64,000 nucleotides of DNA. Origin: Candidatus Levyibacteriota bacterium. GTDB lineage: Bacteria > Patescibacteriota > Microgenomatia > Levybacterales > UBA12049. The notes beneath the pieces were generated by a model. The model searched no databases. It saw only the letters and a program-made list of their open reading frames with translations, and was not told the DNA's origin. Position numbers and translations under genes: made by a program. Below, piece after piece: positions 9,277 to 32,903 of this stretch (its first letter is position 1; each line of letters opens with the position of its first letter). The stretch covers positions 304,236 to 368,235 of the forward strand of contig CP066685.1 of the NCBI GenBank assembly GCA_016432345.1, given 5' to 3'.

Positions 9277-11013
9277 ATGGTAGATTTTCAGTGGTTAATT
9301 GGTGGCGAAGCAGGATATGGCATTATGACTGTTGGCGCCATAATGGGAAAAGTATTTACTCGTCTCGGCTTGTCGGTTTTTGACTATACAGAATATCCTT
9401 CTCTTATTCGTGGAGGTCATAACGCGTATTATGTTAGGGCATCAGATGAAGAGATTTTTTGCCAGAAGCAGCCAGTTGATATACTCGTTGCATTAAATCG
9501 GGAAACAATTGATAGACACAAACACGAATTAACTCCGCAAGCGCTTGTAGTTTATGACCCGAATGTTACTAAGGTTGAGTCTACAGAATTTACTACACAA
9601 ACTCTTATTCTAATTCCTTTTTTAGAATTAACAAAGCAAGTTGGGGCAGATAGACTGATGATTAATACTGTGGCGGTTGGCGCATCGATTGCTCTTTTAT
9701 ACAATGATTTCTCTGTTTTAGAGGGAATACTCAAAGATATTTTTGGAAGAAAAGGTGAAAAAGTTATTGCGCTTAACGTTGATACCTCAAGAGCTGGGTT
9801 TGATTATGTTGTCAAAAATTTTGCCGGTAAATCACAAATTGCAATACAAGAAAAACCGCAGGAGAATTTGTTTATCGGCGGAGCTGAAAGTTTGGCTCTT
9901 GGGGCAATTCGGGCGGGGGTAAAGTTTGCAGCCATTTACCCGATGACACCTATTAATGCCGTCCTTACGACGCTTTCTGCATACGCACTTAAATATAACA
10001 TTGTGGTAAAAGAGCCGGAAGATGAAATTGCCGGAGTTAATATGGCAATTGGCGCCTCTTTTGCTGGAGTGAGAAGTATTGCTGCCACATCTGGCGGCGG
10101 TTTTGCTTTAATGGTAGAAGGTTTAGGTCTTGCAGCCCAAACCGAAACACCGCTTGTAGTAATTGAAGGTATGCGACCAGGGCCAGCAACAGGTATGCCA
10201 ACTTGGACAGATCAGGGTGATGTGAGGTTTGTTTTGCATGCGGCGCATGGAGATTTTCCTCGAATTGTTGTTGCTCCGGGCGATTGTCTGGAGGCATTTA
10301 CATATGTAATGGAAGCATTTAATTTAGCAGAAAAGTATCAAATGCTTGTTATTGTGCTTACAGATAAATATCTTAATGAAGGACACACCACACTCAAAAT
10401 CTCAAATCTCAAATCTCAAATCTCAAATTATAAAATTGACAGGGGGAAGATGCTGACCGATGAAGAAGCATTAAAAGAGACAGATTATAAACGATATCTG
10501 TTTACAGAAGATGGAATTTCACCACGTTCAATACCTGGCCAGCAGAATGGAATTGCCTTAAATGGATCCGATGAACATGATGAGAAGGGTTTGTATAACG
10601 AAACTTCAAAAATGCGAACAACAATGATGGACAAACGTTTTAAAAAATTAGACGCGGTTGCAAAAATATTGCCGCCGCCTGTAATATACGGCGACAAAGA
10701 TGCAAGTCTTACTATTGTTGGATTTGGATCGACAAAATTGCCGGTACTCGAGGCAATAAAGTGGTTAAAAAAAGAAGGAATAAGTGTTAATTTTTTGCAG
10801 GTTGTATATCTAAATCCCTTTCCGGCAGATGTGGTACTACAAATATTAACTGGTGCAAAAAAAACATTGGTTATCGAAGGTAATAAAACAGGCCAATTCG
10901 AAAGTGTTGTTCGGGAAAAGACAGGATTTGTATTTAGTAATCATTTTCGAAAATATGACGGCCGACCATTTTACCCGGAGGAAATAGTGGAGAAGGTGCG
11001 GTCATTACTATGA
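9277..11013 (+). CDS. 2-oxoacid:ferredoxin oxidoreductase, fused gamma/alpha subunit
   Basis: ORF 9235..11013. The likely start is ATG 9277, just after the ferredoxin stop. Blocks GGEAGYGIMT, AAIYPMTPI, GASFAGVRSIAATSGGGFALM and EGMRPGPATGMPT. Confidence 0.88.
   Translation: MVDFQWLIGGEAGYGIMTVGAIMGKVFTRLGLSVFDYTEYPSLIRGGHNAYYVRASDEEIFCQKQPVDILVALNRETIDRHKHELTPQALVVYDPNVTKVESTEFTTQTLILIPFLELTKQVGADRLMINTVAVGASIALLYNDFSVLEGILKDIFGRKGEKVIALNVDTSRAGFDYVVKNFAGKSQIAIQEKPQENLFIGGAESLALGAIRAGVKFAAIYPMTPINAVLTTLSAYALKYNIVVKEPEDEIAGVNMAIGASFAGVRSIAATSGGGFALMVEGLGLAAQTETPLVVIEGMRPGPATGMPTWTDQGDVRFVLHAAHGDFPRIVVAPGDCLEAFTYVMEAFNLAEKYQMLVIVLTDKYLNEGHTTLKISNLKSQISNYKIDRGKMLTDEEALKETDYKRYLFTEDGISPRSIPGQQNGIALNGSDEHDEKGLYNETSKMRTTMMDKRFKKLDAVAKILPPPVIYGDKDASLTIVGFGSTKLPVLEAIKWLKKEGISVNFLQVVYLNPFPADVVLQILTGAKKTLVIEGNKTGQFESVVREKTGFVFSNHFRKYDGRPFYPEEIVEKVRSLL
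10392..10434 (+). repeat. Heptanucleotide array (TCTCAAA) x4 perfect (10400-10427) with degenerate flanking units, inside the oxidoreductase alpha gene
   Basis: Read directly: actcaaaa tctcaaa x4 ttataaa. It encodes KISNLKSQISNYK. Confidence 0.95.
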
Positions 11014-11900
11014 CAACGTTAAAAGATTTAGAAATTACTTATGACAAACCAAACTGGTGCCCAGGGTGCGGAGATTTTGGCGTTTGGGTGTCGTTAAAGA
11101 ATGCAATTGTGCAGTTAAATTTAAATCCATGGGAAGTTGTGTTAGTTTCTGGGATTGGATGCTCAAGCAAACTACCTTATTGGGTAAAAACATATGGATT
11201 TAACGGCCTACATGGCCGTCCAATGCCTGCGGCAGAGGCAATTAGATTAGCAAACCATGGATTAACAGTTATTGTTGTTGCCGGAGATGGGGATCAATAT
11301 GGGGAAGGGCTTAGTCATTTTATTCATGCTGCAAGACGCAACATAAACATCACCGTTCTAGTACATAACAATCAAATTTATGGGTTAACAACCGGTCAGT
11401 ATTCGCCGGCAACCGATATGGGAGAAAAAAATAAGGCAACACCTGTCCCAACTGTTGAAGCACCGGTCAATCCAATAAGTTTAGCGTTATCAGCTGGTGC
11501 CACATTTATTGCCCGCGGATTTGCCGGAGACAACAAGCAAGAAACAGAATTATTAATTGAAGCAATTAAGCATAAAGGGTTTTCATTTGTTGACACTATG
11601 CAGCCATGTGTAACGTTTAACCACAAAAATACCTTTGCTTGGTTTTACGAGCGAGTCTATAAAGTAGAAACAAAAAATCATGACCCTAAGGATAAGACAG
11701 AAGCATTTGAAATAGCCGAAAGTTGGCCCCTTCGCAGGCTTCTTAAAGAGGGTGAGAAGGAGCAGATAGCTACAGGAATTATTTATCAGGAAGAAAGGCC
11801 TACATGGGAAGATGGTATCCCCCAAATCTCCACAATGCGGTTGGTTAAGCAGTCAATAGAAAACATAGACATTAACTCAATTTTAGATGAGTTAATATAG
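11010..11900 (+). CDS. 2-oxoacid:ferredoxin oxidoreductase, beta (TPP-binding) subunit
   Basis: WCPGCGDFG and GDGD...GLSHF TPP-binding blocks. ATGA overlap with the alpha subunit. Confidence 0.9.
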   Translation: MTTLKDLEITYDKPNWCPGCGDFGVWVSLKNAIVQLNLNPWEVVLVSGIGCSSKLPYWVKTYGFNGLHGRPMPAAEAIRLANHGLTVIVVAGDGDQYGEGLSHFIHAARRNINITVLVHNNQIYGLTTGQYSPATDMGEKNKATPVPTVEAPVNPISLALSAGATFIARGFAGDNKQETELLIEAIKHKGFSFVDTMQPCVTFNHKNTFAWFYERVYKVETKNHDPKDKTEAFEIAESWPLRRLLKEGEKEQIATGIIYQEERPTWEDGIPQISTMRLVKQSIENIDINSILDELI

Positions 11901-11917
11901 TATCAAATTATTAGTTA

Positions 11918-11952
11918 TTGACATGTTTAGTAACATTTAGTACAATTTAGTC
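11918..11952 (+). promoter_or_regulatory. Sigma70-like promoter TTGACA-17-TACAAT ending 6 nt before the ATG (leaderless type), overlapped by three 10-bp-spaced TTTAGT(A/C) direct repeats
   Basis: TTGACA at 11918-11923, TACAAT at 11941-11946, ATG at 11953. TTTAGTA at 11926 and 11936, TTTAGTC at 11946. Confidence 0.55.
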
Positions 11953-12219
11953 ATGAATGGTAACATAATTTCTGCTAAGGTTTATACACCAGAGCAAGTA
12001 GCAACGATGCTTCAGCTTTCTAAAAATACGGTATATCAACTTATTAATCGGGGTGAGATTATCGCCAAAAAGATTGGTAAGGTCTATCGTATTCCTGCAA
12101 GTTCTCTGTCCTTTGTCTTTACAGGACTCGATTACGATCTCTACAAGGCAGAAAAAGAAGACCGAAAGCAGTTATCTAAAGTCCAAGAAGAGATTGCAAA
12201 AGTACGAGCTACTCTGTAA
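11953..12219 (+). CDS. Excisionase/MerR-type HTH DNA-binding protein, probable antitoxin
   Basis: MLQLSKNTVYQLINRGEIIAKKIGKVYRIPASSL matches the excisionase-family HTH pattern. It lies 4 nt upstream of a PIN gene. Confidence 0.7.
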   Translation: MNGNIISAKVYTPEQVATMLQLSKNTVYQLINRGEIIAKKIGKVYRIPASSLSFVFTGLDYDLYKAEKEDRKQLSKVQEEIAKVRATL

Positions 12220-12223
12220 CTTT

Positions 12224-12649
12224 ATGGCTCTGAAAGTTTTTGTCGATACAGATGTTGTAATTTCTTCTCTTATTTCGCCAACTGGCGCAGCACATTTTTT
12301 ACTCAACCAAACAGACGACTTTGATTTGTTTGTTTCAAATATATCTGCAAAAGAAATCGACAAAGTTGTAAAACGGCTGCATCTTGATATAGAAAAAGCA
12401 AAAAATCTTATACAGAAACGTTTTTTTACTGTTCAATTAAAAGAAACGATTGAAGATATAAAATTAGTTTTCGATGAATATGTATTAGATATTAATGATG
12501 CGCATATTGTAGCGGGCGCAAAAACTGCGCATGCGCAATTTCTTATTTCTTACAATACAAAACACTTTAAGGCAGATAAATTAAAAAAAGATTTTAATAT
12601 TATTCTTGCCACTCCGGCAAGCTTTCTACAATATTTAAGAAGCCATTAA
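12224..12649 (+). CDS. PIN-domain ribonuclease, probable type II toxin
   Basis: ORF 12053..12649, with the real start likely ATG 12224. KVFVDTDVVISSLISPTGAAHFLL has the acidic PIN N-terminal signature, and a later D is present at DINDAHIV. Confidence 0.75.
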   Translation: MALKVFVDTDVVISSLISPTGAAHFLLNQTDDFDLFVSNISAKEIDKVVKRLHLDIEKAKNLIQKRFFTVQLKETIEDIKLVFDEYVLDINDAHIVAGAKTAHAQFLISYNTKHFKADKLKKDFNIILATPASFLQYLRSH

Positions 12650-13780
12650 GCTCTCTTTTAAGATTTCCTTATATACCTTTTTATACTCATCTACCATTTT
12701 TTCTACAGTAAAGTTTTCTTCAACATGTTTGCGGCACAAACGGCGCATTTGTAGATATTCATTTTTAGGCATTGCATATATTCGGTTAACTGCCTCGCGC
12801 AAACCGTTAATACCTGTTTTTTTAATAATCCAGTTTCCTCTTATATCATCATCTGACGGATTCACAATAAAGCCAGTTTCTCCATCTTTTATGATTTCAG
12901 GTATTGATCCTCGTCCATACGCAATAACAGGAGTTCCACATGCCATAGATTCAGTCATAACTAGTCCAAAAGGTTCTTCCCATTGAACAGGGAAAAGGAA
13001 AAGCTTACTTGTTTGAAAGTGTTTAATGAGCTCATGGCGATTTTTATTTAAAGCAATAGAAATTGAAGTGGAAAGGTTAACCTGATCAATTTTTTGCAAA
13101 ATATCATTAAACCACAGTTTATGCTCGCTTTTTGTAATTCCAAAAAGTTTGAGGTTTTGTTTTGTCAGCCTTGCTATCTCTATGACAATATCCATTCCTT
13201 TTTGAGGAATTGCCCGTCCTGCCCACATCATGTTTGTACCTCCTTGGGGATTAAAGATAAAACTATGGTAAGCATCGATTCCATGATAGATAGTAGCAAT
13301 ATAGGGTAGGTATGGTAAGCGTTTTCTTTGTATGTTAGTTGGAGAAACAAAGTAGACGTTTTTGTTCTCTTCGAAGAGAGAGAAATATTTTTTTGCATAC
13401 TGGATATCTGTGGGGTGATATAAAGTAATCAGAATAGGTTTTTTTACAAAAGGGGCAAAAGGTAGGGCAATGTCGCCATCACCTATATTAATATGATAAA
13501 GATCAAACTTATCTTGTTGCGAGAAGGCTTTGGAAAGAAGTGCTAATTCAAAGATAATGTGCTTACCGGCTTTAATAATATGCTCATTAGCAGTAGAGGG
13601 ATAATAATCAATACTCTCGATTTTTGTAGGTAGGTCAGAATCTCCGGAAGCAAAAGTCGTGATTTGAAGACTTTTTTGTTTTACCAAGCTATTAATAAAG
13701 GTATGAACAATAATTTCTGTCCCTTTTTTTGTAGTCTTTTTAAGACTAAGATAATTTGAAGCAATAATTGCGACTTTCAT
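12635..13780 (-). CDS. GT4 (GT-B fold) glycosyltransferase
   Basis: C-terminal motif EEPFGLVMTESMACGTPVIAYGRGSIPEIIKDGETGFIV (EX7E type). Confidence 0.85.
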   Translation of the reverse strand: MKVAIIASNYLSLKKTTKKGTEIIVHTFINSLVKQKSLQITTFASGDSDLPTKIESIDYYPSTANEHIIKAGKHIIFELALLSKAFSQQDKFDLYHINIGDGDIALPFAPFVKKPILITLYHPTDIQYAKKYFSLFEENKNVYFVSPTNIQRKRLPYLPYIATIYHGIDAYHSFIFNPQGGTNMMWAGRAIPQKGMDIVIEIARLTKQNLKLFGITKSEHKLWFNDILQKIDQVNLSTSISIALNKNRHELIKHFQTSKLFLFPVQWEEPFGLVMTESMACGTPVIAYGRGSIPEIIKDGETGFIVNPSDDDIRGNWIIKKTGINGLREAVNRIYAMPKNEYLQMRRLCRKHVEENFTVEKMVDEYKKVYKEILKESLMAS

Positions 13781-13789
13781 AAACTTTTG

Positions 13790-16018
13790 TCATGCTAGAC
13801 TGGATAATGTTTTTAGAAACTCTGCTGACCAGCGGTAGATATTATGAATTTTAACCACCTCTCTCATTTTAATCATTCGTATTGTTTGTTCTGATTCTTT
13901 CATCTCCAGTCCTAATTGTATAGCATCGGCAACCTGCTCTATATTATAGGGATTAATAATTAAAGCATCTTTTAGTTCGCGCGAAGCTCCAGCAAATTGA
14001 CTTAAAATTAATACTCCTTTCTCATCGCTTCTTGAAGCAACGAACTCTTTTGATACAAGGTTCATGCCGTCATGGAGAGAAGTGACTAAGCATATATTTG
14101 CTATTTTGTAAAATTCATTGATTTCTTTGTGCGTATAGCGTTTTTTAAGAAAAATTATTGGTTTCCATCCTTTCGTTTGAAACATGGCATTAATTTTTTC
14201 TACTTCTGTTTTGACGTCGTTTTCAAAATCTTGGTACCTTTTTATTTTGCTTCGCGAGGGAGGCGAGACCTGAATAAATGTAAAATGCTCTTTGTATGAG
14301 GGATATTTATTTAAGAAAAACGCAATTGCCTTAAACCGCTCTATGATTCCTTTTGTATAATCGAGTCTGTCAACGCCAAGCCCAATATATTTTGTTTTTA
14401 TGTCAAATGTTTTTAGTATATTGTTGCTATCCAGCTCGCCTGATTTGTCATTTGGTTCGGAGAGATATCCATTATAAAATGCTATACTTATGGGGAATGG
14501 TTTTATATAGCTTGTATGTCCATTTCTAGTTACGGCAAATTGTTCTAAATCAATCAGGGATTCTAATTCTCCTCCAACCGTATCAATAAAATTATTGCAA
14601 TACAGTTGCGTTTGAAAGCCAACTAAGTCTGCGCCTAAAATGCCGTTTAATAGTTCTTTACGGAATGGACAAATACGAAAAGATTCGGAATTTGGCCATG
14701 GGACATGCCAAAATATGCCAATTTTCGCATCAGGCCTCTGTTTTTTTATCAGTGTTGGAAGAAGCGCTAAGTGAAAATCTTGAATAAGCAGCATTGGATT
14801 TTTAATATTTTTAATTTCCTGTAGCACCGCTTTTGCAAATTTTTCATTTGCTGATTTGTATTCTAACCAATCTTCTTTTCTAAAGATTGGTCTTGTATGG
14901 GCAATATGGCAAAGCGGCCAAAGGCCTTCGTTGGAAAATCCATAATAATATCCTTTTTCTTCTTCTTCAGACAGCCAAACTCTGCGTAATGTATATTTTG
15001 GTTCATGGGGCGGGACTTTTACTCGATCATGATTGTCTACAACAAGCTTGTCAGCATTGCCGCTTCCATGGGCGATCCATGTGCCACCACATGCCTGCAT
15101 TACTGGTTCGATTGCTGTTACTACGCCACTTGTCGGGAAAAAATAACTTATGTCTCCCCCATTTTTTGTATGTATATATGGTTCTCTGTTAGATACGACG
15201 AGTATTGCTTGGTCTTTTAAAACATTTTTAATAAATTCCTTTAAACGTTCTGCTGTCCAAGGGGCATTAACCTTATCAAGTCCCAACTTTGCTTCCTCGC
15301 TTACGGCAAATCTTGCTTCCATCAGACTTCTATTAATGTTTGAAATTTCTCTAACGAGTGGTTGAAAAAAAGGGTTATTTGGTATCTGTTTAGACTTATC
15401 TCCTATACGAGTTGATTTTAATGATTCCACAATATTTTGTATGGGCTTATGAATAACCCATCGTAAAAATAAAATTGCTGCTATTGACAGAAGAAAAACC
15501 TGTATCGATAAACGCATTAAACTATTTCTCCATATTTCCTGTATGCGCGTATCAATATATCCAGCGTTTTGCGCTACCATCAAAGCTCCTACTACGCTTG
15601 TTTTGTCATGAAGAGGAACAGCAAAAATATATATGTTGCTGTCGTTAAGCGTAACGAAATCTCCGTTTGCCTTATCTCCATCCATTGCGTCAGATACAAT
15701 TTGTTGAGGTTCTAATGTTTCTTTAGATAAGCTTGAAGAAACAGCAATAATTTTACCCTTGTTGTCGAATATCGATAATCCAACGAGCCTTTCTTTATTG
15801 GCAAATTTTTCGACGACCGTTTGAAGATATTCATCTGATTTGTTAATAAAATTTGGCTCGACTGTTTCTCTTAAACTTTCTGCAAGGAGTGTTGATCTAT
15901 GTTGCAGGTCAATACTTAGTCTTTTTTCTTCTTGATCAACCTGTTTTATACTAAAGGAAATAACAACAAGTCCAACAATTGCCGCTATTAAAAAAACTAT
16001 TATTATAATTTGTCTCAT
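13790..16018 (-). CDS. otsA: Trehalose-6-phosphate synthase (GT20, OtsA) with an N-terminal TM / extracytoplasmic / TM / HAMP-like sensor module
   Basis: The C-terminal ~490 aa carry OtsA blocks: FSNEGLWPLCHIAHTRP, IQDFHLALLP, IGIFWHVPWPNSE, GADLVGFQT and LHDGMNLVSKEF. The N-terminal ~250 aa have two hydrophobic helices (aa 4-22 and 170-189) flanking a ~145-aa segment, then an amphipathic linker. Confidence 0.85.
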   Translation of the reverse strand: MRQIIIIVFLIAAIVGLVVISFSIKQVDQEEKRLSIDLQHRSTLLAESLRETVEPNFINKSDEYLQTVVEKFANKERLVGLSIFDNKGKIIAVSSSLSKETLEPQQIVSDAMDGDKANGDFVTLNDSNIYIFAVPLHDKTSVVGALMVAQNAGYIDTRIQEIWRNSLMRLSIQVFLLSIAAILFLRWVIHKPIQNIVESLKSTRIGDKSKQIPNNPFFQPLVREISNINRSLMEARFAVSEEAKLGLDKVNAPWTAERLKEFIKNVLKDQAILVVSNREPYIHTKNGGDISYFFPTSGVVTAIEPVMQACGGTWIAHGSGNADKLVVDNHDRVKVPPHEPKYTLRRVWLSEEEEKGYYYGFSNEGLWPLCHIAHTRPIFRKEDWLEYKSANEKFAKAVLQEIKNIKNPMLLIQDFHLALLPTLIKKQRPDAKIGIFWHVPWPNSESFRICPFRKELLNGILGADLVGFQTQLYCNNFIDTVGGELESLIDLEQFAVTRNGHTSYIKPFPISIAFYNGYLSEPNDKSGELDSNNILKTFDIKTKYIGLGVDRLDYTKGIIERFKAIAFFLNKYPSYKEHFTFIQVSPPSRSKIKRYQDFENDVKTEVEKINAMFQTKGWKPIIFLKKRYTHKEINEFYKIANICLVTSLHDGMNLVSKEFVASRSDEKGVLILSQFAGASRELKDALIINPYNIEQVADAIQLGLEMKESEQTIRMIKMREVVKIHNIYRWSAEFLKTLSSLA

Positions 16019-16035
16019 TAGTTACTCTATTTTAA

Positions 16036-16074
16036 CACACAAAAACCCCCGAGGTAAACCTTTTGGGGGTTTTG
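16036..16074 (-). terminator. Rho-independent-type hairpin (CCCCC/GGGGG stem extended by A/T pairs, then a T-run) downstream of the DUF5679 gene
   Basis: aaaaccccc-gaggtaaacctttt-gggggtttt read directly. On the minus strand the stem is followed by TTTTTGTGT. Confidence 0.5.
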
Positions 16075-16094
16075 TTTTGATAGACAAAAGCTTT

Positions 16095-16238
16095 TTATGC
16101 TGCGCCGATCTTGTACATGCCAGTGCCACAAGTTGGGCATTTGCCTTTCATTGCTGGTTTACCATTTTTCATGGTAACTTTAACAGCTGCTGGATCTTCT
16201 CTTTTTGCTCTGCATTTTACACAATACATTGATGCCAT
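16095..16238 (-). CDS. Small zinc-ribbon protein (DUF5679-like), 47 aa; absent from the supplied ORF track because it is under 60 aa
   Basis: Manual translation gives MASMYCVKCRAKREDPAAVKVTMKNGKPAMKGKCPTCGTGMYKIGAA, with CxxC...CxxC. A strong SD (GGAGGGAGGTG) lies 9 nt upstream of the ATG. Confidence 0.8.
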   Translation of the reverse strand: MASMYCVKCRAKREDPAAVKVTMKNGKPAMKGKCPTCGTGMYKIGAA

Positions 16239-16259
16239 AATATAATTCACCTCCCTCCA

Positions 16260-16493: not shown

Positions 16494-16515
16494 AGAATAC
16501 GGAAAGATTACACTA

Positions 16516-16545: not shown

Positions 16546-16554
16546 AAATAAAAC

Positions 16555-20121: not shown

Positions 20122-21024
20122 ATGAATATTGTTGGGAAAAAATATTGGTATTTTGGACTATCGCTTTTGGTGATTATTCCAGGGTTTATTTCGCTCTTTT
20201 TGTGGGGGTTACGGTTGTCGATTGATTTTACCGGAGGATCAAGAATTGAGTTTAGAATTCAGAATTCAAAATTCAAAATTGAGCGGTCAGAGTTTGAAAA
20301 AACAATAAAAAATCAAGGCATGGAGATAAGTTCGATACAGCAATCAAAAGATACATTTATTGTTAGGACTAAGCCGCTTGATCAAAAGACTCATCAAAAA
20401 GTAAAAGGAGCTATTGAATCGAAGTTTAGAGACGCTAAAGAAGTGAGTTTCCAGACAGTTGGGCCAACTATTGGGAAAGAAACAACCCTAAACGCAATAA
20501 AAGCAATTGTTGTGGCATCTATTCTTATTGTTTTATACATTGCGTGGTCATTTCGAAAAGTGCCAAAACCGGCCAGCAGTTGGCGGTTTGGCATATGCGC
20601 AATCGCAGCATTACTGCATGATGTGTTGGTGGTCGTTGGGATATTTTCGATTTTGGGTCATTTTTGGCATGTGGAAGTGGATAGTCTTTTTGTTACAGCC
20701 ATATTGACAATTATTGGATTTTCTGTTCACGATACGATCGTAGTGTTTGATCGGATTAGGGAAAACCTGCGAAGAATGCCTGGAGTAGCTTTTGCTAATA
20801 TTGTAAATGATTCGATATTGCAAACACTTAGCAGGTCTTTAAATACATCAATAACAGTTATTTTAGTTCTTTTTACAATGCTTTTGTTTGGAGGAGAAAC
20901 AATTAGGTGGTTTATTGTCGCGCTTCTTATTGGCATTGCCAGCGGGACATATTCTTCCATTTTCAATGCCGCCCCACTGTTGGTGGTTTGGCAGGAATTG
21001 ACAGAGAGAAGAAAACAGTCGTAA
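20122..21024 (+). CDS. secF: Protein translocase subunit SecF
   Basis: IDFTGGS, LLHDVLVVVGIFSI and GFSVHDTIVVFDRIRENL. Confidence 0.93.
   Translation: MNIVGKKYWYFGLSLLVIIPGFISLFLWGLRLSIDFTGGSRIEFRIQNSKFKIERSEFEKTIKNQGMEISSIQQSKDTFIVRTKPLDQKTHQKVKGAIESKFRDAKEVSFQTVGPTIGKETTLNAIKAIVVASILIVLYIAWSFRKVPKPASSWRFGICAIAALLHDVLVVVGIFSILGHFWHVEVDSLFVTAILTIIGFSVHDTIVVFDRIRENLRRMPGVAFANIVNDSILQTLSRSLNTSITVILVLFTMLLFGGETIRWFIVALLIGIASGTYSSIFNAAPLLVVWQELTERRKQS
20242..20281 (+). repeat. Heptanucleotide array (AGAATTC x2, AAAATTC, AAAATTG, plus an upstream AGAATTG separated by 5 nt) inside secF
   Basis: Read directly. It encodes IEFRIQNSKFKIE. Confidence 0.9.
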
Positions 21025-22276: not shown

Positions 22277-22277
22277 A

Positions 22278-25335: not shown

Positions 25336-26973
25336 ATGAATATGAAGAAGTGGAAAGTTTTACATAAATTGAAAGATGAAAGTATCATAAACGTTCTTCT
25401 GGAAAATAGGGGAATTAAAACTAAAAAAGAGATTGGGGAGTTTTTACATCCGAAATTGGAAGATGTGACGGTAAAAAGCGTTGGCATTGATGGGGTTCAA
25501 TTGAAAAAAGCATTGCAAAGAATAGAAGAGGCAATTAAAAAGCAGGAAGAGATTGTGGTGTTTGGAGACTACGATGTAGATGGAATTTGCGGAGCTGCAA
25601 TTTTATGGGAAACACTTTTTTGCTTAGGAGCAAGAGTAATGCCATATATTCCTCATCGAATAGATGAAGGTTATGGTCTATCCCTTGCGGGAATCTCAAA
25701 TGTCAAATCTCAAATGTCAAATCTCAAATTGATAATAACGGTAGACAATGGAATAGTTGCAAATGAGGCGGTTTTGTTTGCTAATAAACAAGGTATAGAT
25801 GTTATTATTACCGATCATCATGTGGTGGGAGAAATACTGCCAAAAGCATATGCAATTGTTCATACAACTAAATTATGCGGAACAGGGGTGGCTTGGGTTT
25901 TAGCTCAAGAATACAAAATACAAAATACAAAATACAAAATACTAGATCATCTTGCTCTTGTGGCGCTGGCAACTGTGGCGGATTTGGTGCCATTAACTGG
26001 TGCGAATAGAACACTACTTATGCATGGTTTATCTGTGTTGCATAAAACAAAACGACTAGGTATTGTGGCAATATGCGAAGAGGCGGGAATTGACCAGAAA
26101 ACAATTGAGACGTATGAAATTGGTCATGTGATTGCGCCAAGGCTGAATGCAGCAGGGCGAATAGAGCATGCCATGGATGCCTTGCGACTTTTGTGCACCA
26201 AAGACACAAAACGGGCAAAACTGTTGGCGCAAAATTTAGGAGCAACAAATAGAGAAAGGCAGGATATAACGCTGGAAAGCGCGCAGCACGCAGTGTCAGG
26301 AATCAGGAATCAGGAATCAGGAATCAGGAAGAAATTACTTTTTATTGCGGAGGAGCAATATCAGCAAGGGGTGATTGGACTGGTTGCTGGGCGGTTGGTC
26401 GAGGAGTTTTATCGGCCGGCAATTGTGGTATCTATTGGGGAAACACATAGTAAAGCCTCGGCGCGGTCAATTCACGGATTTAATATTATTGAATTTATCC
26501 GTACTGCATCTCATTTGTTGATTGATGCAGGGGGGCATCCAATGGCAGCGGGGTTTACGGTGGAAACAGCAAAATTAACTCTTTTGCAAAAACATTTAGA
26601 GGAAAAAGCAGAAGAAATAATAGACGAGGCATTGTTGCAGCGATCGTTGCGAATTGACTGTGAAATTCCAATAGAAATTATTGACCAGCATTTATATAAA
26701 GAATTGCAAGCCTTAGCGCCGTTTGGCATGAAAAACCCAGAGCCGACATTTGTCAGTAGAAATGTTGTTATTGAAGATATGAGATTAGTAGGAAAAGACA
26801 GAAAACATGTAAAGTTTAAATTTTCGATTGACGCAATTGGGTTTGGGTTGGGAGAGAAAGCAGGGGAATTTAGTGTTGGGGATAAGGTGGATATTGTTTA
26901 TACGATTGATGAGAATGAGTGGAATGGAAGAAAAACGTTACAGTTGAAGGTGAGGGATATAAAGAGAAATTAA
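25336..26973 (+). CDS. recJ: Single-stranded-DNA-specific exonuclease RecJ
   Basis: ORF 25306..26973 (TTG), with the first ATG at 25336. DHH motifs VFGDYDVDGICG, ITVDNG, ITDHH, GTGVAW and GHPMAAGF. Confidence 0.92.
   Translation: MNMKKWKVLHKLKDESIINVLLENRGIKTKKEIGEFLHPKLEDVTVKSVGIDGVQLKKALQRIEEAIKKQEEIVVFGDYDVDGICGAAILWETLFCLGARVMPYIPHRIDEGYGLSLAGISNVKSQMSNLKLIITVDNGIVANEAVLFANKQGIDVIITDHHVVGEILPKAYAIVHTTKLCGTGVAWVLAQEYKIQNTKYKILDHLALVALATVADLVPLTGANRTLLMHGLSVLHKTKRLGIVAICEEAGIDQKTIETYEIGHVIAPRLNAAGRIEHAMDALRLLCTKDTKRAKLLAQNLGATNRERQDITLESAQHAVSGIRNQESGIRKKLLFIAEEQYQQGVIGLVAGRLVEEFYRPAIVVSIGETHSKASARSIHGFNIIEFIRTASHLLIDAGGHPMAAGFTVETAKLTLLQKHLEEKAEEIIDEALLQRSLRIDCEIPIEIIDQHLYKELQALAPFGMKNPEPTFVSRNVVIEDMRLVGKDRKHVKFKFSIDAIGFGLGEKAGEFSVGDKVDIVYTIDENEWNGRKTLQLKVRDIKRN
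25694..25728 (+). repeat. Alternating heptanucleotide array (TCTCAAA TGTCAAA) x2.5 inside recJ
   Basis: Read directly. It encodes ISNVKSQMSNLK. Confidence 0.95.
25910..25942 (+). repeat. Heptanucleotide array (ATACAAA) x4.6 inside recJ
   Basis: Read directly. It encodes EYKIQNTKYKIL. Confidence 0.95.
26296..26330 (+). repeat. Heptanucleotide array (TCAGGAA) x5 perfect inside recJ
   Basis: Read directly. It encodes SGIRNQESGIRK. Confidence 0.97.
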
Positions 26974-26974
26974 A

Positions 26975-28270
26975 CTAATTATCTTTTTCAATCTTTGCTC
27001 GCGCTCGCGCTATGGCTTGTTGGTAGAGTGTTTGGATATCGTCTAGATCGTATATTTCTGGTGGGAAAAGTCGTTCTATAACTCCTGTTTCAAAGACTCG
27101 TTTTGCCTCAAATTCGTCACGCGACACCCCTCGTTGATATAAAGAATCAAGGTATGTTTTTATAGTATGAATAATGACTTCTACCTTTAATCCATGAAAT
27201 TTTACTTGAAGTTTGCATACCTTAAAGTCTTTGGAGCTGCCGCCGTTTTCGGCAGAGTATTTTCCATCTTGGATAGAATCCTCGATGTCTGTAACTTCTA
27301 TTTCGCTTCCTGAGGTTTGCGCGGCTCTAATAAATTGTTCAACAATTTTTTTTACATCACGATAAGTTTCAACGACTGCAAATACACCAAACACATCTTG
27401 CACTGCTTCGGTTGGTTCGTGTGATCTTTTTCTTAATAATTTTACTACCTGAGAAATATCCAGTTTTTTTCGAGTGTGGAGAAAAATTTTTCTATTTCCT
27501 TCCGTAAGTCTTCGTACTGGAAGAACGTCTAATTTTGTGCCTGGATATTGTTGTTGATAGACTCGCGCTTCTTGTCGTGTATTAAATGTAGTGTAGTTTG
27601 CGCATTCATATGTTTCTGGATTAAGATGACTAACAATGAATACTCTTTCTGGCGCGCCCCTTTTTTGATCTTTGCTTAACAAGTTTTGATCAAGGAAATA
27701 ATTTATTTCGTCAATACTCCCTTTATATTGACTAGCAGCATAATCAATGTCTTGAGCATATTCCATAAGCACTAATTTTCGGTATGCTTCAAACCGTGTG
27801 GTTCTATACTCATCTTTATTAAATATTATTGTCATAAGATCAACAGGATGGTGAATGTCTCGCAGTTCGTTGGTGAGATCGACTGCAACAACATCCTGAC
27901 CAAGAAAATCTTTACTAAGGTTATCTATTATCGAATCTGCAGTTTCAGAGTATTTTTTATACCGATTAGCTCTAGCTTCAATTGACTCGTCTGCAAAATC
28001 AGGAAACTGCAATGAAAATCGTTCGTCATATGTTGTTTTAACGCGAGCAAGCGCTTCGGGGGTCTTTGTGATAGCTGGAATCTCCGAAAAATTTTTGACG
28101 CCAAAAATTCCTGTGACTCTTGCTCGAAGAGCAACAAAATCCATGTAGAGTCCAGTAAATTTAAGCTCTCTTATTCCATGTGTACGTAATTGAGGAAAAG
28201 ACCCCGATCTTGTAAAATAGCGATCAAGAGATTCAAGCGGTTTCATACTATGGGATTGTATAAAATGCAA
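26975..28270 (-). CDS. Hypothetical protein; the C-terminal third resembles a degenerate RelA/SpoT-type nucleotidyltransferase domain
   Basis: aa ~260-385: HTRKKLDISQVVKLLRKR ... VQDVFGVFAVVETYRDVKKIVEQF ... FKVCKLQVKFHGLKVEVIIHT. This follows the order and spacing of the RSH synthetase blocks (RxKS..Kl.RK / D..G.R.v / Y.S.H / vE.QIRT), but with substitutions at the conserved R, H, Q and R. Assigned from memory of the family pattern only. Confidence 0.35.
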   Translation of the reverse strand: MHFIQSHSMKPLESLDRYFTRSGSFPQLRTHGIRELKFTGLYMDFVALRARVTGIFGVKNFSEIPAITKTPEALARVKTTYDERFSLQFPDFADESIEARANRYKKYSETADSIIDNLSKDFLGQDVVAVDLTNELRDIHHPVDLMTIIFNKDEYRTTRFEAYRKLVLMEYAQDIDYAASQYKGSIDEINYFLDQNLLSKDQKRGAPERVFIVSHLNPETYECANYTTFNTRQEARVYQQQYPGTKLDVLPVRRLTEGNRKIFLHTRKKLDISQVVKLLRKRSHEPTEAVQDVFGVFAVVETYRDVKKIVEQFIRAAQTSGSEIEVTDIEDSIQDGKYSAENGGSSKDFKVCKLQVKFHGLKVEVIIHTIKTYLDSLYQRGVSRDEFEAKRVFETGVIERLFPPEIYDLDDIQTLYQQAIARARAKIEKDN

Positions 28271-28276
28271 TAGCGC

Positions 28277-28305
28277 TTGTCAAGAACAAAAAAAATAGGT
28301 ATTAT
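28277..28305 (+). promoter_or_regulatory. Sigma70-like promoter TTGTCA-17-TATTAT, 9 nt before the aspS ATG
   Basis: TTGTCA at 28277-28282, TATTAT at 28300-28305, ATG at 28315. Confidence 0.45.
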
Positions 28306-28314
28306 GTATCAAAT

Positions 28315-29652
28315 ATGCAAAGAGTTCTTATTGCGGAAACTGTTGGTTATATAGATAGGGAAGTTTTAATTAAGGGTTGGATAAAAACCAGACGGGACCA
28401 TGGGAAGCTAATTTTTTTGGATGTTAGAGATAGGTCTGGAATTGTTCAAGTAGTTATAAATCCTCATGTTTCTCAAAATGCGTATGAGCAAGGACAAAAA
28501 CTGCGGTCGGAGTTTGTGGTTGAAATTATTGGAAAAGTTAACAAACGACCGGAAAAACTCGTTAACCCAAAGCTCGAAACAGGCACTGTCGAAATTGAAG
28601 CAACTGCGATAGCCATTCTGGCAGAAGCAGATGTCTTGCCTTTTGACTTAGATCAGCAAGAATTAAATTTAGAATTGCCAACACTGTTGGATTTTAGATC
28701 ATTAACTTTACGCCATCCCAAGCAGCAGGCGATTTTTGCCGTGCAGGCGGCGCTTGCTGCAGGGTTTAGAAAAGCAGCAGAACAACTTGGTTGTACCGAA
28801 ATTGTGGTACCAACAATTGCTATTTCTTCAACAGAAGGAGGAGCCGAAGTTTTTGCAGTTGATTATTATGGACATAAAGCATTTATGACCCAAAGCCCGC
28901 AATTATACAAACAAATGATGGTGCCAATCTTTGAGCGGGTTTGGACAATTGCCCATGCATATCGCGCTGAGCCATCAGTTACTACAAGACATTTGGCAGA
29001 AACTACACAGCTTGATTGCGAGCTGGGATTTGTAAATTTTGAAGAATTGTTAGATAGTTTGGAGCAAGTCGGGATGGAAATGGTTAGTTATGCCCAAAGT
29101 AAGTGCCAAGATATTTTTACAACATACAATTTGGAAAAAGTGCCTTCTGGCAAAATTCCAAGACTTACTCTACGGGAAGCGCAAGAGGTGATTTTTAAAG
29201 AATTTGGCCGAGACGGAAGAAAAGAAAAAGACTTAGCGCCGCAGGACGAAGTGGATATTTGCAAATGGGTCAAAGAAAAACATCATAGCGATTTTGTAAC
29301 AATTACCCATTTTCCAACAAAAGCCAAACCGTTTTATACCATGCCAGATCCTAAGAATCCAGAATACTCATTAAGTTATGATTTGTTATTTCGAGGCGTT
29401 GAGGTGTTAAGCGGTAGTCAGCGAATTAACGATTATGAGATGCTGGTTGCATCTATTAAAAACCGTGGCATGAATACCAAAGATTTTACCATGTATTTGC
29501 AGGCATTTAAATATGGTATGCCGCCTGAAGGAGGATTTTCGTTTGGACTGGAACGAATGACTATGAAAATTTTTGGGCTCTCAAATGTTAGGGAAGCAAG
29601 TCTTTTTCCAAGAGATATGGAACGAATTGATGAGAGATTATCGCGCATTTGA
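28315..29652 (+). CDS. aspS: Aspartate--tRNA ligase (short archaeal/type-2 form, possibly non-discriminating)
   Basis: OB-fold N-terminus (GWIKTRRDHGKLIFLDVRDRSGIVQVV) and class II motifs FRAEPS, GSQR and GGFSFGLERM. 445 aa, lacking the bacterial insertion domain. Confidence 0.9.
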   Translation: MQRVLIAETVGYIDREVLIKGWIKTRRDHGKLIFLDVRDRSGIVQVVINPHVSQNAYEQGQKLRSEFVVEIIGKVNKRPEKLVNPKLETGTVEIEATAIAILAEADVLPFDLDQQELNLELPTLLDFRSLTLRHPKQQAIFAVQAALAAGFRKAAEQLGCTEIVVPTIAISSTEGGAEVFAVDYYGHKAFMTQSPQLYKQMMVPIFERVWTIAHAYRAEPSVTTRHLAETTQLDCELGFVNFEELLDSLEQVGMEMVSYAQSKCQDIFTTYNLEKVPSGKIPRLTLREAQEVIFKEFGRDGRKEKDLAPQDEVDICKWVKEKHHSDFVTITHFPTKAKPFYTMPDPKNPEYSLSYDLLFRGVEVLSGSQRINDYEMLVASIKNRGMNTKDFTMYLQAFKYGMPPEGGFSFGLERMTMKIFGLSNVREASLFPRDMERIDERLSRI

Positions 29653-30598
29653 GAAAAAACTGTTAACTTTTGCAACTAGAAAAAACGCCAAAATTGCCTG
29701 CGTTTGTTTTGTTTTTTCGTTTTTGTATACGGGCATCATAATTGTTGATCAAAAAATTATCCAAGACACAGCAAGAGCAAAAATTATACCTCTTCCTTTT
29801 GTTATTTCTAAACCAGCAGAGTATCCTTTTATTTCGGCTGTTTTGGGAGAAAAAAGTATGTCGTTTCCTATTACAGCCCAAGCAGCAATAATTATGGATA
29901 ATGATTCAAAGGTTATTCTTTACGCCAAAAATGAAAATTTTCGTTTTTCCATGGCATCAACAGCAAAAATTATGACAGCATTAGTTGCTATCGAACACTT
30001 TAAATCATCGGATATTTTAATTGTTCAGAATGAAAAGGTTGAAGGCGTAAATGTTGGGTTTACAAAAGGAGAGAAAGTATATTTTAAAGATTTGCTTTAT
30101 GCAATGTTATTGCCATCTGGTAACGATGCGGCAATTGCCATTGCCCAAAACTATCCAGGAGGCGAGGCAGTATTTGTGGAAAAAATGAATGAAAAAGCAA
30201 AGGATTTACACCTTTTTAAAACCCATTATACCGATGCTTCGGGGCTTGATGATAACGGAAACTACACAACTGTTTTAGATTTGGCGCGTCTTGCTTCGTT
30301 TGGACTTAAAAACGAAACGCTTTCTAGTATTGTTGCAACTAAAAAGTATGTGATACGAAGTCTTGATGGAAATGTTTATATATTGAATAATCTTAATAAG
30401 CTGCTTGGCATAGATGGTGTTTACGGCATGAAGACAGGACATACAGAAGGAGCGGGAGATGTGCTTGTAACTATAAAAAAAGAAGGAGAAAAAGCATTTA
30501 TTTTGGTAGTGATGAAAAGTCAGGATCGTTTTGCCGATACTCAAACGCTGCTTTCTCTTATTTCCGGACAGATGCAGTATCAATCCATGCATCCGTAA
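29630..30598 (+). CDS. D-alanyl-D-alanine carboxypeptidase (serine peptidase S11, PBP5/DacB-like)
   Basis: ORF 29573..30598, with the likely ATG at 29630. SxxK = STAK, SxN = SGN, KTG = KTGHT. It has an N-terminal TM anchor. Confidence 0.85.
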   Translation: MRDYRAFEKKLLTFATRKNAKIACVCFVFSFLYTGIIIVDQKIIQDTARAKIIPLPFVISKPAEYPFISAVLGEKSMSFPITAQAAIIMDNDSKVILYAKNENFRFSMASTAKIMTALVAIEHFKSSDILIVQNEKVEGVNVGFTKGEKVYFKDLLYAMLLPSGNDAAIAIAQNYPGGEAVFVEKMNEKAKDLHLFKTHYTDASGLDDNGNYTTVLDLARLASFGLKNETLSSIVATKKYVIRSLDGNVYILNNLNKLLGIDGVYGMKTGHTEGAGDVLVTIKKEGEKAFILVVMKSQDRFADTQTLLSLISGQMQYQSMHP

Positions 30599-31622
30599 TG
30601 GCGGGGACGTAGGCGAAGAAGCCATTGTCGCCTTCGAAAACAATAATCGGCATAAGATATGTTTGAGGCGGGTCTCCAAGATAGTAGCCTAATGATACGT
30701 TTTTAATACGAATTATATCTTGATTCCCAAAATAAGAAGCAAGATATGCTTTTTGCTTTTGCAATTCTGCAAATGCTTGATCTGCAGTTTTTATGGGATA
30801 AGTGGCAGATGATGTTTGATTGATTGTTGAGTGATTGAATTTTGCTTCTATGATTTCTTCGTCAAATCTTCCCCCGGTCAGGATAAAATAAATAATTGAT
30901 TGAGGCGGGTTGGGGTAATAGATTGGGATTTGGTTTATGTCTTTTTGGTAAAAATCTACCCTCACAACTTGGGCGGTTGAGGGGCTTGAAGCTTCAACCA
31001 AACGTTGATTTTGTATTGTCAGAAGGGTGGTTTTTGTTTTGGCAATATCGATGTCATTTGGAAAAAGAGACAATCTTGTTAAAAAATTTGTAGCCGAAGT
31101 TTGGGCGCTGGCTTGGTCTGGAACAGGAGTTTTAATAAGAAGGTCTGGATTTAAAAGATAATTTGAAGAAAGCGTAAAGTTATTAGAGACAATATTTAAA
31201 ATCAGTTTTCTAAATGGAGAGGCTGTTTCTGTCCAGATGTAGGTGTTTTCGGAAAGTGGATAGGGAGAATTGTTAAAACCAATCGCCTCAACTTTTTTTT
31301 GAGCGTTTTGAAGCCCAAGAAGGTTTGGTTGAGATTCATCAATAGAATACACAGTTGTTCTGTCTGGGAAGTTGGGGAGAGTGCCGGTTATGGTATCAAG
31401 AGAATATAAAAGTTTTTTGTCGGTGCTGTTATTAGGAAAGATAAGGCTTGGTAATTTACCAAAGGCTACAGTTGGGGGAGCGGGAGGGGTGGGGTAAAAA
31501 TACTCTTTTATAGTGGTTCCAAATCTAACCACAAAAAAAAGAAGAATAAGAGCAAAAACAGTAATAACAGCCCATTTTGTGATTTGTTTTGTTTCCTCTG
31601 TGACTGCGTGAAGCGTAGGCAT
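30558..31622 (-). CDS. Hypothetical membrane-anchored extracytoplasmic protein
   Basis: ORF of 354 aa with a single N-terminal TM helix followed by a Pro-rich linker. I recognise no family. Confidence 0.5.
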   Translation of the reverse strand: MPTLHAVTEETKQITKWAVITVFALILLFFVVRFGTTIKEYFYPTPPAPPTVAFGKLPSLIFPNNSTDKKLLYSLDTITGTLPNFPDRTTVYSIDESQPNLLGLQNAQKKVEAIGFNNSPYPLSENTYIWTETASPFRKLILNIVSNNFTLSSNYLLNPDLLIKTPVPDQASAQTSATNFLTRLSLFPNDIDIAKTKTTLLTIQNQRLVEASSPSTAQVVRVDFYQKDINQIPIYYPNPPQSIIYFILTGGRFDEEIIEAKFNHSTINQTSSATYPIKTADQAFAELQKQKAYLASYFGNQDIIRIKNVSLGYYLGDPPQTYLMPIIVFEGDNGFFAYVPAITDAWIDTASVRK

Positions 31623-31664
31623 GCTGTATTGAGTATAGAAGATGGCTTATGATAAAATCAAGGT

Positions 31665-32903
31665 GTGAGACAAGTTCGAGTTCGCATTGCCCCGAGTCCA
31701 ACAGGCATTCCTCATATTGGCAATACCAGAACCGCGCTTTTTAATTATTTGTTTGCCAAGCATCATAAAGGTAAATTTATTTTACGTATTGAAGATACAG
31801 ACCGTGTTAGACTTGTGCCTGGCAGCGAAAATGCAATTAAAGAGATTTTTAGTTGGTTAGGGATACATTGGGATGAAGAGTATAAGCAATCAGATCGGAT
31901 TTTAATATACAAAGAATACGTACAAAAACTTAAAGAAAAAGAATTAGCATACGAAGATAATGGCGCAGTTAGATTCCGGATGCCAAAAGAAGGAGTAAAC
32001 GAATGGGAAGATGCCATAGGCAGCAAGAAAATTTTGTTTCAAAATAAAGACCAGGAAGATTTTGTTATTTTAAAGTCGGATGGTTTTCCCACATATAATT
32101 TTGCCAATGTGATTGACGATCATCTGATGGAAATAACTCATGTAATTAGAGGTGATGAATTTATTTCCTCAACTCCTAAGCATATCCAGCTTTATAAAGC
32201 TTTCGGTTGGGATCAGCCGGTTTTTGCCCATTTGCCAGTGATATTAGGTCCAGATCATCAAAAACTTTCAAAGCGGCATGGGGCAAAGTCGGCGCTTGAT
32301 TACCGCGACGAAGGGTATTTAAAAGAAGCGCTGCTTAATTATATGGTTTTGTTGGGTTGGAATCCTGGAAGCGATCAAGAAATTATGTCTTTAGATGAAA
32401 TGATCACTCTTTTTGATTTGCCGGGTGTTAACACGGCCAGTCCGATTTTTGATGTAAAAAAGCTATTGTGGATGAATGGAATATACATACGAAAATCTCA
32501 AATATCAAATCTCAAATCTCAAATAATATCTCAAAACTCAAAACTTAAAAATGTAGATGATGCGTTGTTGGATAAACTTATTCCTCTTGCGCAGACGAGA
32601 ATGAATACGCTGAATGATTTTTATACACTTACCCGACATTTTTTTGAAGAACCAAAAGTAGTTCTTGATGAAAAGGAAAAAGAAACTGCTCAAAAACTTT
32701 ATAATGCTTTTTTAACAATGAAACTTTGGGATAATGAAACAATTTTGTCATCATTAAAAAATGTTATTCATAAAGAAGGTATTCGTATGCCTATTTTATA
32801 TAAGATACTTACAGGCGCCCCAAGCGGTTTGCCATTGCCAGAATCCTTAACGATTTTAAGCAGAGAAAAGACGATAAAGAGGCTTAAAAAATTACTTACA
32901 TGA
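31665..32903 (+). CDS. gltX: Glutamate--tRNA ligase
   Basis: GTG start. VRIAPSPTGIPHIGNTRTALF (HIGH) and KLSKRHG (KMSKS). Confidence 0.92.
   Translation: MRQVRVRIAPSPTGIPHIGNTRTALFNYLFAKHHKGKFILRIEDTDRVRLVPGSENAIKEIFSWLGIHWDEEYKQSDRILIYKEYVQKLKEKELAYEDNGAVRFRMPKEGVNEWEDAIGSKKILFQNKDQEDFVILKSDGFPTYNFANVIDDHLMEITHVIRGDEFISSTPKHIQLYKAFGWDQPVFAHLPVILGPDHQKLSKRHGAKSALDYRDEGYLKEALLNYMVLLGWNPGSDQEIMSLDEMITLFDLPGVNTASPIFDVKKLLWMNGIYIRKSQISNLKSQIISQNSKLKNVDDALLDKLIPLAQTRMNTLNDFYTLTRHFFEEPKVVLDEKEKETAQKLYNAFLTMKLWDNETILSSLKNVIHKEGIRMPILYKILTGAPSGLPLPESLTILSREKTIKRLKKLLT
32496..32549 (+). repeat. Heptanucleotide array (TCTCAAA family): tctcaaa tatcaaa tctcaaa tctcaaa, a 5-nt break, then tctcaaa actcaaa acttaaa, inside gltX
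   Basis: Read directly. It encodes SQISNLKSQIISQNSKLK. Confidence 0.92.

Follow-up and report, generated by a model that had tools for sequence, protein, structure and literature searches.

The arrays described here lie in a 64-kb window of a metagenome-assembled genome of Candidatus Levyibacteriota (Levybacteria, Microgenomates; contig CP066685.1, positions 304,236–368,235; coordinates below are those of this window, the whole stretch of DNA that was analyzed). Three unrelated enzymes, the 2-oxoacid:ferredoxin oxidoreductase alpha subunit (OFOR-alpha), RecJ and GluRS, carry in-frame tandem arrays of the same heptanucleotide, AAATCTC, and with them the same SQISNLK-type peptide. This recurrence is most likely a case of convergence, through repeated local birth of the arrays rather than transfer between genes. 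Convergent local birth from a restricted vocabulary of units is the best-supported reading of the data, and we hold it to be probable, if well short of certain. The arrays are best read as heptanucleotide simple-sequence repeats, a known kind of repeat, generated by a process that acts at the DNA level, in place, and is filtered by translation. Three copies of a 7-nt unit make 21 nt, and the unit is thereby read through all three frames to give a 7-residue peptide; because a 7-nt periodicity within this 21-nt heptad is meaningless for the protein, its cause must act on DNA.

The SQISNLK-type peptides that an earlier note on this DNA had reported in the three enzymes are all present and in frame. 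OFOR-alpha contains a 100% perfect array of 4.6 AAATCTC copies (10397–10428) that encodes KISNLKSQISN, with TLKISNLKSQISNYK as the in-frame peptide. The first of three RecJ arrays (site 1, 25692–25729) is a perfect 14-mer, AATCTCA/AATGTCA, in 2.7 copies and encodes GISNVKSQMSNLK, and GluRS carries degenerate AAATCTC copies followed by AAAACTC (32493–32550; encoded peptide KSQISNLKSQIISQNSKLKN), within which KSQISNLKSQIISQNSKLK was confirmed in frame. A hybrid array had also been described in sufS, and this is indeed a mosaic (7402–7460) of the form CAATTTT ×4, CAAT, CAAATCT, CAATTTT, CAAAAAT ×2, that is, of AATTTTC units, one AAATCTC unit and AAAAATC units; it encodes NFQFSIFNFQSNLNFQKSKM. The phenomenon extends beyond the region 10392–32549 to which it had been assigned. 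Tandem Repeats Finder (TRF) together with an exact-period scan lists 14 tandem arrays of period 7 or 14 across the 64 kb, in 11 genes and mostly 31–35 nt long. The window has a GC content of ~36% and tightly packed genes, most of them on the + strand, and all 14 arrays lie on that strand, inside open reading frames (ORFs), in sense orientation and with the frame kept. Their hosts include a PMT_2 glycosyltransferase, SufC, SufS, OFOR-alpha, SecF, RecJ, GluRS, a GT87-like protein and two PTPS_related membrane proteins.

The arrays are specific for a period of 7. Counting perfect arrays of at least three copies, we found eight of period 7 in the window and none of any other period from 4 to 12. 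Related loci of the candidate phyla radiation (CPR; 777 kb) yielded 12 of period 7 and no more than two of any other period, and control loci from Firmicutes and others (690 kb), fetched with the same RecJ probe as the CPR loci, contained no perfect period-7 array of this minimum copy number. TRF gave a comparable picture, with nine period-7 and four period-14 arrays in the 64-kb window, 29 in the 777 kb of CPR loci and a single one in the 690 kb of non-CPR controls. The lengths of exact period-7 runs are bimodal, with an excess cluster at 31–35 nt, a tail that is missing for periods 5, 8, 10 and 11. The arrays start and finish with the same 3–5 nt, and the 31–35-nt mode equals a 10–14-nt seed plus 21 nt. 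An assembly artefact is ruled out by the recurrence of arrays in independent assemblies, always in frame, and by point variants among orthologues.

The earlier note had proposed that four of the five main units would create stop codons if inverted and that this accounts for the sense-only orientation. The count is correct (AATTTTC, AAATCTC, AGTTCAA and TCAGGAA do so; AATACAA does not), and the explanation is borne out in related loci, where arrays in minus-strand genes are likewise sense and stop-free. The lack of arrays in minus-strand genes of the window itself was dismissed as a meaningful strand bias, since it would arise by chance with P ~0.04 and the related loci carry sense arrays in such genes. 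The DNA around same-unit arrays is unrelated, as had been claimed, with a 40-nt flank identity of 0.17–0.42 against a null of 0.27 ± 0.07. Templated copying between loci, offered as the alternative to independent births, found no support in the window, where same-unit arrays share neither longer flanks nor gradients of identity nor patterns of variants; the variants are private and differ between arrays of the same unit, a G variant in RecJ and an A variant in GluRS.

Background 7-mer frequency and the stop-free rule do not together fully predict the choice of units. As a null, we counted sense-strand 7-mer necklaces in the window, arrays excluded, and retained those without a stop in any of the three phases; from 13 arrays one would then expect 0.14 pairs with a common unit, against six observed (P ~3.5e-5). 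Among the 1605 stop-free units AAATCTC ranks only 432nd in background frequency and AATTTTC 46th. The earlier idea of independent convergent births is thus upheld in part. It agrees with the sense-only and stop-free rules, with orthologous sites that carry differing units and with units that match local codons, but the cause that had been given for it is insufficient.

Much of this recurrence gap is closed by AT-richness, the hydrophilicity of the encoded heptad and a clade-wide vocabulary. Of 42 stop-free units with six A/T positions, the six most hydrophilic that are not homopolymeric (AAAAATC, AAAATAC, AAAATTC, AAATTAC, AAATATC and AAATTTC) were all observed as arrays. Units that are AT-only or rich in T, whose encoded heptads are strongly hydrophobic, are almost absent, with one CTTTTTT array found. 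We scanned 120 Levybacteria RecJ orthologues for peptides that a heptamer array would give when translated through three frames, and obtained 86 arrays in 56 proteins that use only 17 units, led by AAAAATC (14), AAATCTC (13), AAATTTC (10), AATTCAG (9), AAATGTC (8) and AAAATTC (7). Drawing from this clade vocabulary (sum of squared frequencies ~0.1, effectively ~10 units) gives ~7.7 shared pairs among 13 arrays compared with the six observed, a rough consistency check only, as the RecJ arrays are phylogenetically non-independent. The vocabulary is Levybacteria-wide and small, consisting of AT-rich, stop-free, hydrophilic units that mostly contain TCAA or TCAG. These tetramers are present in the units of 9 of 12 window arrays and of 80 of the 86 arrays in the RecJ orthologues, against a background mass for such units of 8% overall and 28% within the hydrophilic AT-rich subset. 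Microgenomates loci of higher GC content (~46–48%) use more GC-rich units, such as AACCAGC and AACCTAC.

The same positions are occupied in many Levybacteria, with units that differ by species. RecJ site 1 lies between GYGL and LIITVDNG and measures 18 residues in nearly all Microgenomates, with or without an array. It has an ordinary sequence (SIKGIDNLKLKYPDVKLI) in some proteins and an array peptide from one of several units (GISNVKSQMSNLK, GIKNLKLKIKNCS, SILNLKSKILNPK) in others, the I-x-N-[LIV]-K register being kept in every case. RecJ site 2 of the window is a perfect array of 4.7 AATACAA copies (25910–25942; EYKIQNTKYKI), and site 3 is a perfect array of 5.0 TCAGGAA copies (26296–26330; SGIRNQESGIRK), where most orthologues instead have KIKNQKSKIK, encoded by AAAAATC. 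In GluRS the segment after WMNGxYIR is normally a helix of the form LSxEELxxxLxxF, which the array replaces, and the overwriting units differ between the window, L018 (AAATATC), L033 (AAAATTC) and L081. The OFOR-alpha segment is 21 residues long in 16 of the 16 orthologues that match the anchor pattern, with arrays of AAAATTC, AAAGTTC or AAATCTC type running into a conserved Q-S-x-N-Y-K-I. Units thus match conserved local residues, namely I-x-N at RecJ site 1, F-x-I at RecJ site C and Q-S-x-N-Y-K-I in OFOR-alpha. The closest relative, L081, has a syntenic contig and an 82% identical RecJ that contains none of the three RecJ arrays of the window, and its GluRS sequence differs as well. It has arrays of its own, KLKTQNSKLKT at the RecJ N-terminus and CAAATAC in SecF, the latter protein being exactly seven residues longer than that of the window at the array site (AGAATTC/AAAATTC, 20254–20280, encoding RIQNSKFKI in the window). 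Arrays that are absent or different in so close a relative imply a turnover that is fast relative to ~20% protein divergence.

Segment lengths fall under two regimes, being quantized by seven residues where extra residues are tolerated and equal to those of an overwritten native element where length is constrained. Among RecJ orthologues the N-terminal segment comes in classes of 14, 21 and 28 residues (15 of 16 array-bearing segments have 21), site C in 6–7 or 13 and site 2 in 9, 16 or 24; such seven-residue classes fit three-unit gains of 21 nt from a 10–14-nt seed. Most arrays are not insertions but overwrite structural segments already there, and simple insertion was rejected for SufC, SufS, OFOR-alpha, RecJ site 1 and GluRS on the evidence of their conserved length. 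An ungapped alignment places the SufC array (AGTTCAA, 4.6 copies, 4477–4508) on the DYEVTGGTVEFKG hairpin of solved SufC, and the two SufS arrays need at most one gap against solved SufS, the 7402–7460 segment differing in length by one residue. AlphaFold2 modelling of RecJ from the window (mean pLDDT 86.5) predicts the array at site 1 to be helix 115–124, and helix ends plus loops, modelled with less confidence, at sites 2 and 3.

Three arrays have units that are not stop-free: the second SufS array (GAATTAT, 4.1 copies, 7872–7900, encoding QNYEFRIMNYA), the RecJ N-terminus of L006 (AGATTGA/AGATTTA) and RecJ site C of L002 (AGATTTA). In each, periodicity is lost only at the copy that would place TGA or TAA in frame; the sole break in the SufS array, TTATGA to TTTAGA, occurs in the copy that would otherwise have an in-frame TGA. 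This is the signature that would be expected of homogenization checked by purifying selection. The sole intergenic array that we found (L026, 2865–2895, in the related loci) contains stops on both strands.

Some of these sites also carry other small inserts. The SecF array of L081 (3786–4709) contains a 21-nt in-frame hairpin mini-insert, TCGCCTCGCGACGAAGCGGGC, and L025 (1964–2014) has tandem copies of a very similar 21-mer; another 21-nt in-frame hairpin mini-insert, caATCCCGATtaaATCGGGATc, sits inside heptamer arrays at the RecJ N-termini of L007 and L003. Each adds exactly seven residues, which suggests that the arrays are hit by small insertions of a second type as well. Longer in-frame, GC-rich inserts (SCHPERSEGSQ..., VILNSFQDL...MLKQVQHD and PFGSAQ... 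are examples) occupy variable sites of RecJ in P0007, P0008, P0010, P0032, P0038, P0043 and P0088 and resemble translated palindromic repeat elements; that of P0010 splits a heptamer array.

These observations can be accommodated by the following scheme. Heptamer arrays would arise and be re-homogenized in place within genes, in a 7-nt register, most likely because the nascent strand slips or realigns repeatedly, in replication or repair synthesis, at A/T-rich microhomologies of 3–5 nt spaced 7 nt apart. Only net in-frame changes would survive, either as three-unit steps (21 nt, seven residues) or as expansion followed by trimming to an unchanged length. Arrays with an in-frame stop would be eliminated, and since only those without one would survive, the sense orientation would be fixed. 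A unit would be retained only if the heptad that it encodes over three frames is hydrophilic or amphipathic and can be tolerated. What these filters would leave in an AT-rich genome is a small vocabulary, A(n)T(m)C together with variants one step removed, in which AAATCTC (KSQISNL) would be a member seeded by the very common codons AAA, AAT, ATC, TCA, CTC and CAA; a small vocabulary and common-codon seeding would then give the same peptide in OFOR-alpha, RecJ and GluRS by convergence. Within this scheme we infer the slippage mechanism, the three-unit step in one event and the route through expansion and trimming.

AAATCTC arrays are found well beyond Levybacteria. A metagenome scan for four tandem copies of the unit returned at least 120 loci, from a collection so huge, and in a search so conditioned on one unit, that no firm inference on origin can be drawn. 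Among the matches listed, to which the following results refer, GC contents lie between 0.31 and 0.67, and 32 of the loci (about a quarter) are rich in the HIP1 octamer, which indicates cyanobacteria. The arrays are mostly 30–36 nt long, and many are in frame in MurD, HypF, ThiC, LigA, LeuRS, ValRS and ComEC. Perfect period-7 arrays in these loci number 201, against 17, 3, 7, 7 and 1 for periods 4, 5, 6, 8 and 11. The flanks next to the AAATCTC arrays have no information content. AAATCTC is the exact starting point of about half of the arrays, and the ends of most fall within the A-run or directly behind it, as AAAT(C)(T). Corrected for search bias, this phase is seen in 31 of 47 short arrays compared with 11.8 expected, and in 13 of 41 arrays of at least 34 nt; a fixed cut-site phase was rejected, as the phases are biased but vary. 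Long arrays of 10–17 copies occur in the same metagenomes.

Viral contigs scanned with 28-mers for a global specificity for TCAR gave 7 matches for AAATCTC, 11 for AATTTTC and 28 for AAAAATC, compared with 1, 9 and 16 for the controls AAATTCC, AAAATCC and AAAGAAG. One of the metagenome loci, L152 (66% GC), has two 33-nt AAATCTC arrays less than 10 kb apart (152–184 and 8836–8868), and it has the same length as, and is apparently identical to, an IMG/VR "viral" contig matched in the viral scan. Another, L092, carries four AAATCTC arrays ~170 nt apart in one ORF (42–582), a heptamer array nested in a larger tandem repeat.

Several points weigh against convergent local birth. The choice of units stays biased toward TCAA and TCAG after all modelled constraints, and abundant purine-only stop-free units such as AAAGAAG and AAAAAGC were never seen as arrays. 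Slippage is inferred and not observed, and a gain of three units in a single event in an essential gene is without a demonstrated mechanism. Many arrays are length-neutral and would need an extra step, either trimming or slip-out-and-back conversion, and the mosaic arrays of SufS and GluRS are awkward under pure local expansion. In-frame arrays of the form (AAATCTC)~4.6 are present in ThiC, MurD, HypF, LigA, LeuRS and ValRS of unrelated contigs, some of 55–66% GC. A local AAATCTCAAAT seed should be very rare in such GC-rich genes, so the arrays there may have a templated or enzyme-driven origin.

The copying form of this alternative, which we consider rather unlikely, holds that breaks or gaps receive patches of ~30–35 nt copied from heptamer arrays at other places in the genome by microhomology-primed repair synthesis or ectopic gene conversion, with the TCAA/A-run core annealing and the unit spreading to unrelated genes. 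It would account for the same units in unrelated genes far above the background prediction, for the TCAA/TCAG core common to the vocabulary beyond the modelled constraints, for SufS and GluRS mosaics that join three vocabulary units at CAA junctions and for arrays that replace sequence instead of merely adding to it. The 30–36-nt in-frame AAATCTC arrays of GC-rich genes, where a local seed is improbable, with their biased start phase and A-run ends, also speak for copying, and the 10–17-copy arrays in the same metagenomes are possible donors. Yet the adjoining flanks are without similarity or information content, private variants are not shared between the RecJ and GluRS arrays, site-specific units fit conserved local codons, the seven-residue length classes fit local three-unit steps, a long donor array is absent from the 64-kb window and the GC-richer Microgenomates loci use GC-richer units (AACCAGC, AACCTAC). 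An origin in a dedicated or strongly sequence-biased process, one that writes ~32-nt arrays of TCAA/TCAG type such as (AAATCTC)4AAAT across bacterial phyla and overwrites structured segments in frame, strikes us as unlikely. It may work by synthesis of patches templated on donor arrays, or through an enzyme that carries a heptamer template, and the phyla affected may comprise CPR, Cyanobacteria, Bacteroidetes-like and 55–66% GC genomes. If such a process exists, the shared unit would be the signature of a machinery and not of convergence.

That the heptad peptides, or a DNA or RNA motif bound by a heptamer-reading protein such as one of the cold-shock-type OB fold, are advantageous and maintained by selection seems to us improbable. 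Among AT-rich stop-free units those observed rank as the most hydrophilic, the array peptides sit in helices and hairpins with native length and hydrophobic pattern kept, similar peptides recur at one site across species and heptamer-repeat binding has been reported for CspB (PMC4679880). Selection on a peptide cannot, however, produce a 7-nt periodicity within the heptad; a given site has different units in different species, the arrays are missing from the closest relatives, arrays decay so that many array-length segments score as non-array, and the multiplicity of units rules out a single sequence-specific binding site. We give very little credence to footprints or miniature copies of mobile elements, whether in-frame insertions like the Rickettsia palindromic elements or stacked 7-bp target-site duplications. 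Other small in-frame inserts (21-nt hairpins and GC-rich, palindrome-like sequences) do occur at the same hot spots and arrays are widespread across phyla, but the arrays lack inverted repeats, conserved ends and conserved flanks, their start and end phases vary, they usually replace sequence rather than insert (0–1 gaps against solved homologues) and no array-linked transposase was found in the window. Phase-variable contingency loci, in which a change in unit number switches genes on and off, as at the tetranucleotide and heptanucleotide repeats of Haemophilus (PMC2651432), are the most improbable of all. A unit not divisible by three, inside or at the 5′ end of genes, is the classic architecture of such loci, with slippage as the assumed process, and two of our arrays lie at the N-termini of surface glycosyltransferases. 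Contingency loci belong to dispensable surface or virulence genes with in- and out-of-frame alleles, whereas the hosts here are mostly essential single-copy housekeeping genes (GluRS, RecJ, SufS, SufC, SecF, OFOR), the arrays lie mid-gene in structured segments and all arrays in all genomes examined are in frame.

The closest known counterparts of the arrays are the long simple-sequence repeats of prokaryotes. Mrazek, Guo and Shah (2007) are cited for the heptanucleotide as the commonest long class in most prokaryotic genomes, for slippage as its proposed cause, with 7 nt as the length in contact with the polymerase, and for in-gene units being those divisible by three (PMC4679880, PMC4692102). 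The window arrays share with these repeats a tandem unit of 5–11 nt that runs longer than chance, the few perfect or near-perfect copies and the predominance of period 7. The published repeats are described as mainly intergenic, units not divisible by three being under-represented inside genes, and the surveys do not include this CPR lineage, whereas the arrays here are in frame in conserved, mostly housekeeping and in several cases essential genes, at recurrent sites. MacGregor (2015) described TAACTGA/TCAGTTA repeats common to Beggiatoaceae, Cyanobacteria and Bacteroidetes, in 2–6 direct copies, distant phyla between which no mechanism of transfer is known; a few "reverse" TCAGTTA copies are translated as a seven-residue LSVISYQ repeat, mostly at protein ends (PMC4679880). 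The translatable strand has a TCAG core, as in units of the window. That system, unlike ours, has one dominant unit, mostly intergenic and upstream of start codons, with a proposed regulatory role; the TAACTGA unit is missing from the TRF list of the window, whose arrays have many units, are coding and sense, overwrite mid-protein structural segments and fall into seven-residue length classes.

The short tandemly repeated repetitive sequences of cyanobacteria are tandem heptanucleotide arrays dispersed over the genome as well. Their units, reportedly CCCCAGT, TTGGTCA and CAACAGT in the work of Mazel et al. from 1990, are different ones, in longer, intergenic arrays that define a feature of heterocystous cyanobacteria; the window arrays lie in ORFs of Candidatus Levyibacteriota with AATTTTC, AAATCTC, AGTTCAA, AATACAA, TCAGGAA and other units. 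Calothrix heptanucleotides are mentioned in PMC4692102. The tandem repeats of Borgs are, like ours, perfect, fast evolving and independently arising, occur in ORFs with an A-enriched coding strand and flanks of partial (seed) repeats, and create new peptide segments with frames unbroken (PMC9879509). Their in-ORF units are all divisible by three and form disordered regions (PMC9879509), whereas here the unit is of 7 or 14 nt, the frame is kept by the total length, the arrays run to only ~5 units and structured elements are mimicked. A literature search found no paper on heptamer arrays in CPR/Patescibacteria genomes and no match for AAATCTC arrays or the SNLKSQISNLK peptide. What appears to be new is that in-frame arrays occupy the conserved enzymes of a CPR phylum so pervasively, with recurrent hot spots, seven-residue length classes, in-place overwriting of secondary-structure elements and the stop-avoidance signature.

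Arrays in essential genes amount to a natural assay of the 7-nt register, the surviving events being three-unit steps, length-neutral overwriting and stop avoidance. Conserved enzymes can have their helices and hairpins rewritten, yet not destroyed, by a repeat process at the DNA level, with seven-residue indels and low-complexity segments as its outcome in CPR proteins, and for CPR genomes such segments can be a source of error in alignment, phylogeny and domain annotation. Should the cross-phylum AAATCTC arrays reflect a specific mechanism, it would be one undescribed so far.

Two of the remaining arrays of the window are in membrane glycosyltransferases. The PMT_2-family glycosyltransferase, whose ATG at 1061 overlaps the stop of the upstream gene (1061–1064), has 4.7 copies of AATTTTC from codon 4 (1070–1102; NFQFSIFNFQF), and the GT87-like membrane glycosyltransferase, with its ATG at 46778 next to the upstream stop (46772–46780), has a perfect array of 5.0 copies of the same unit over codons 3–14 (46784–46818; IFNFQFSIFNF). 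Both arrays (MIR-NFQFSIF... and MR-IFNFQFSIF...) begin 2–3 codons past the start and form the cytoplasmic N-terminal tail ahead of the first hydrophobic, probably transmembrane, stretch. A run of paralogous PTPS_related or glycosyltransferase-like membrane-protein genes occupies 48001–58233, and two of them carry arrays with units outside the AT-rich vocabulary: a perfect 14-mer, ACGTGCT/ACAAGCT (ACGTGCTACAAGCT), in 2.6 copies (55751–55788) in one PTPS_related protein and 4.3 copies of CTATACG with 82% matches (57325–57354) in its paralogue. A perfect array of 3.0 CAAATTA copies (61413–61433) lies near the N-terminus of the ORF at 61313–62221. The sole notable window repeats of other periods are an imperfect TCTTCT/period-9 repeat at 37662–37705 and an A-rich 18-mer at 41910–41952.

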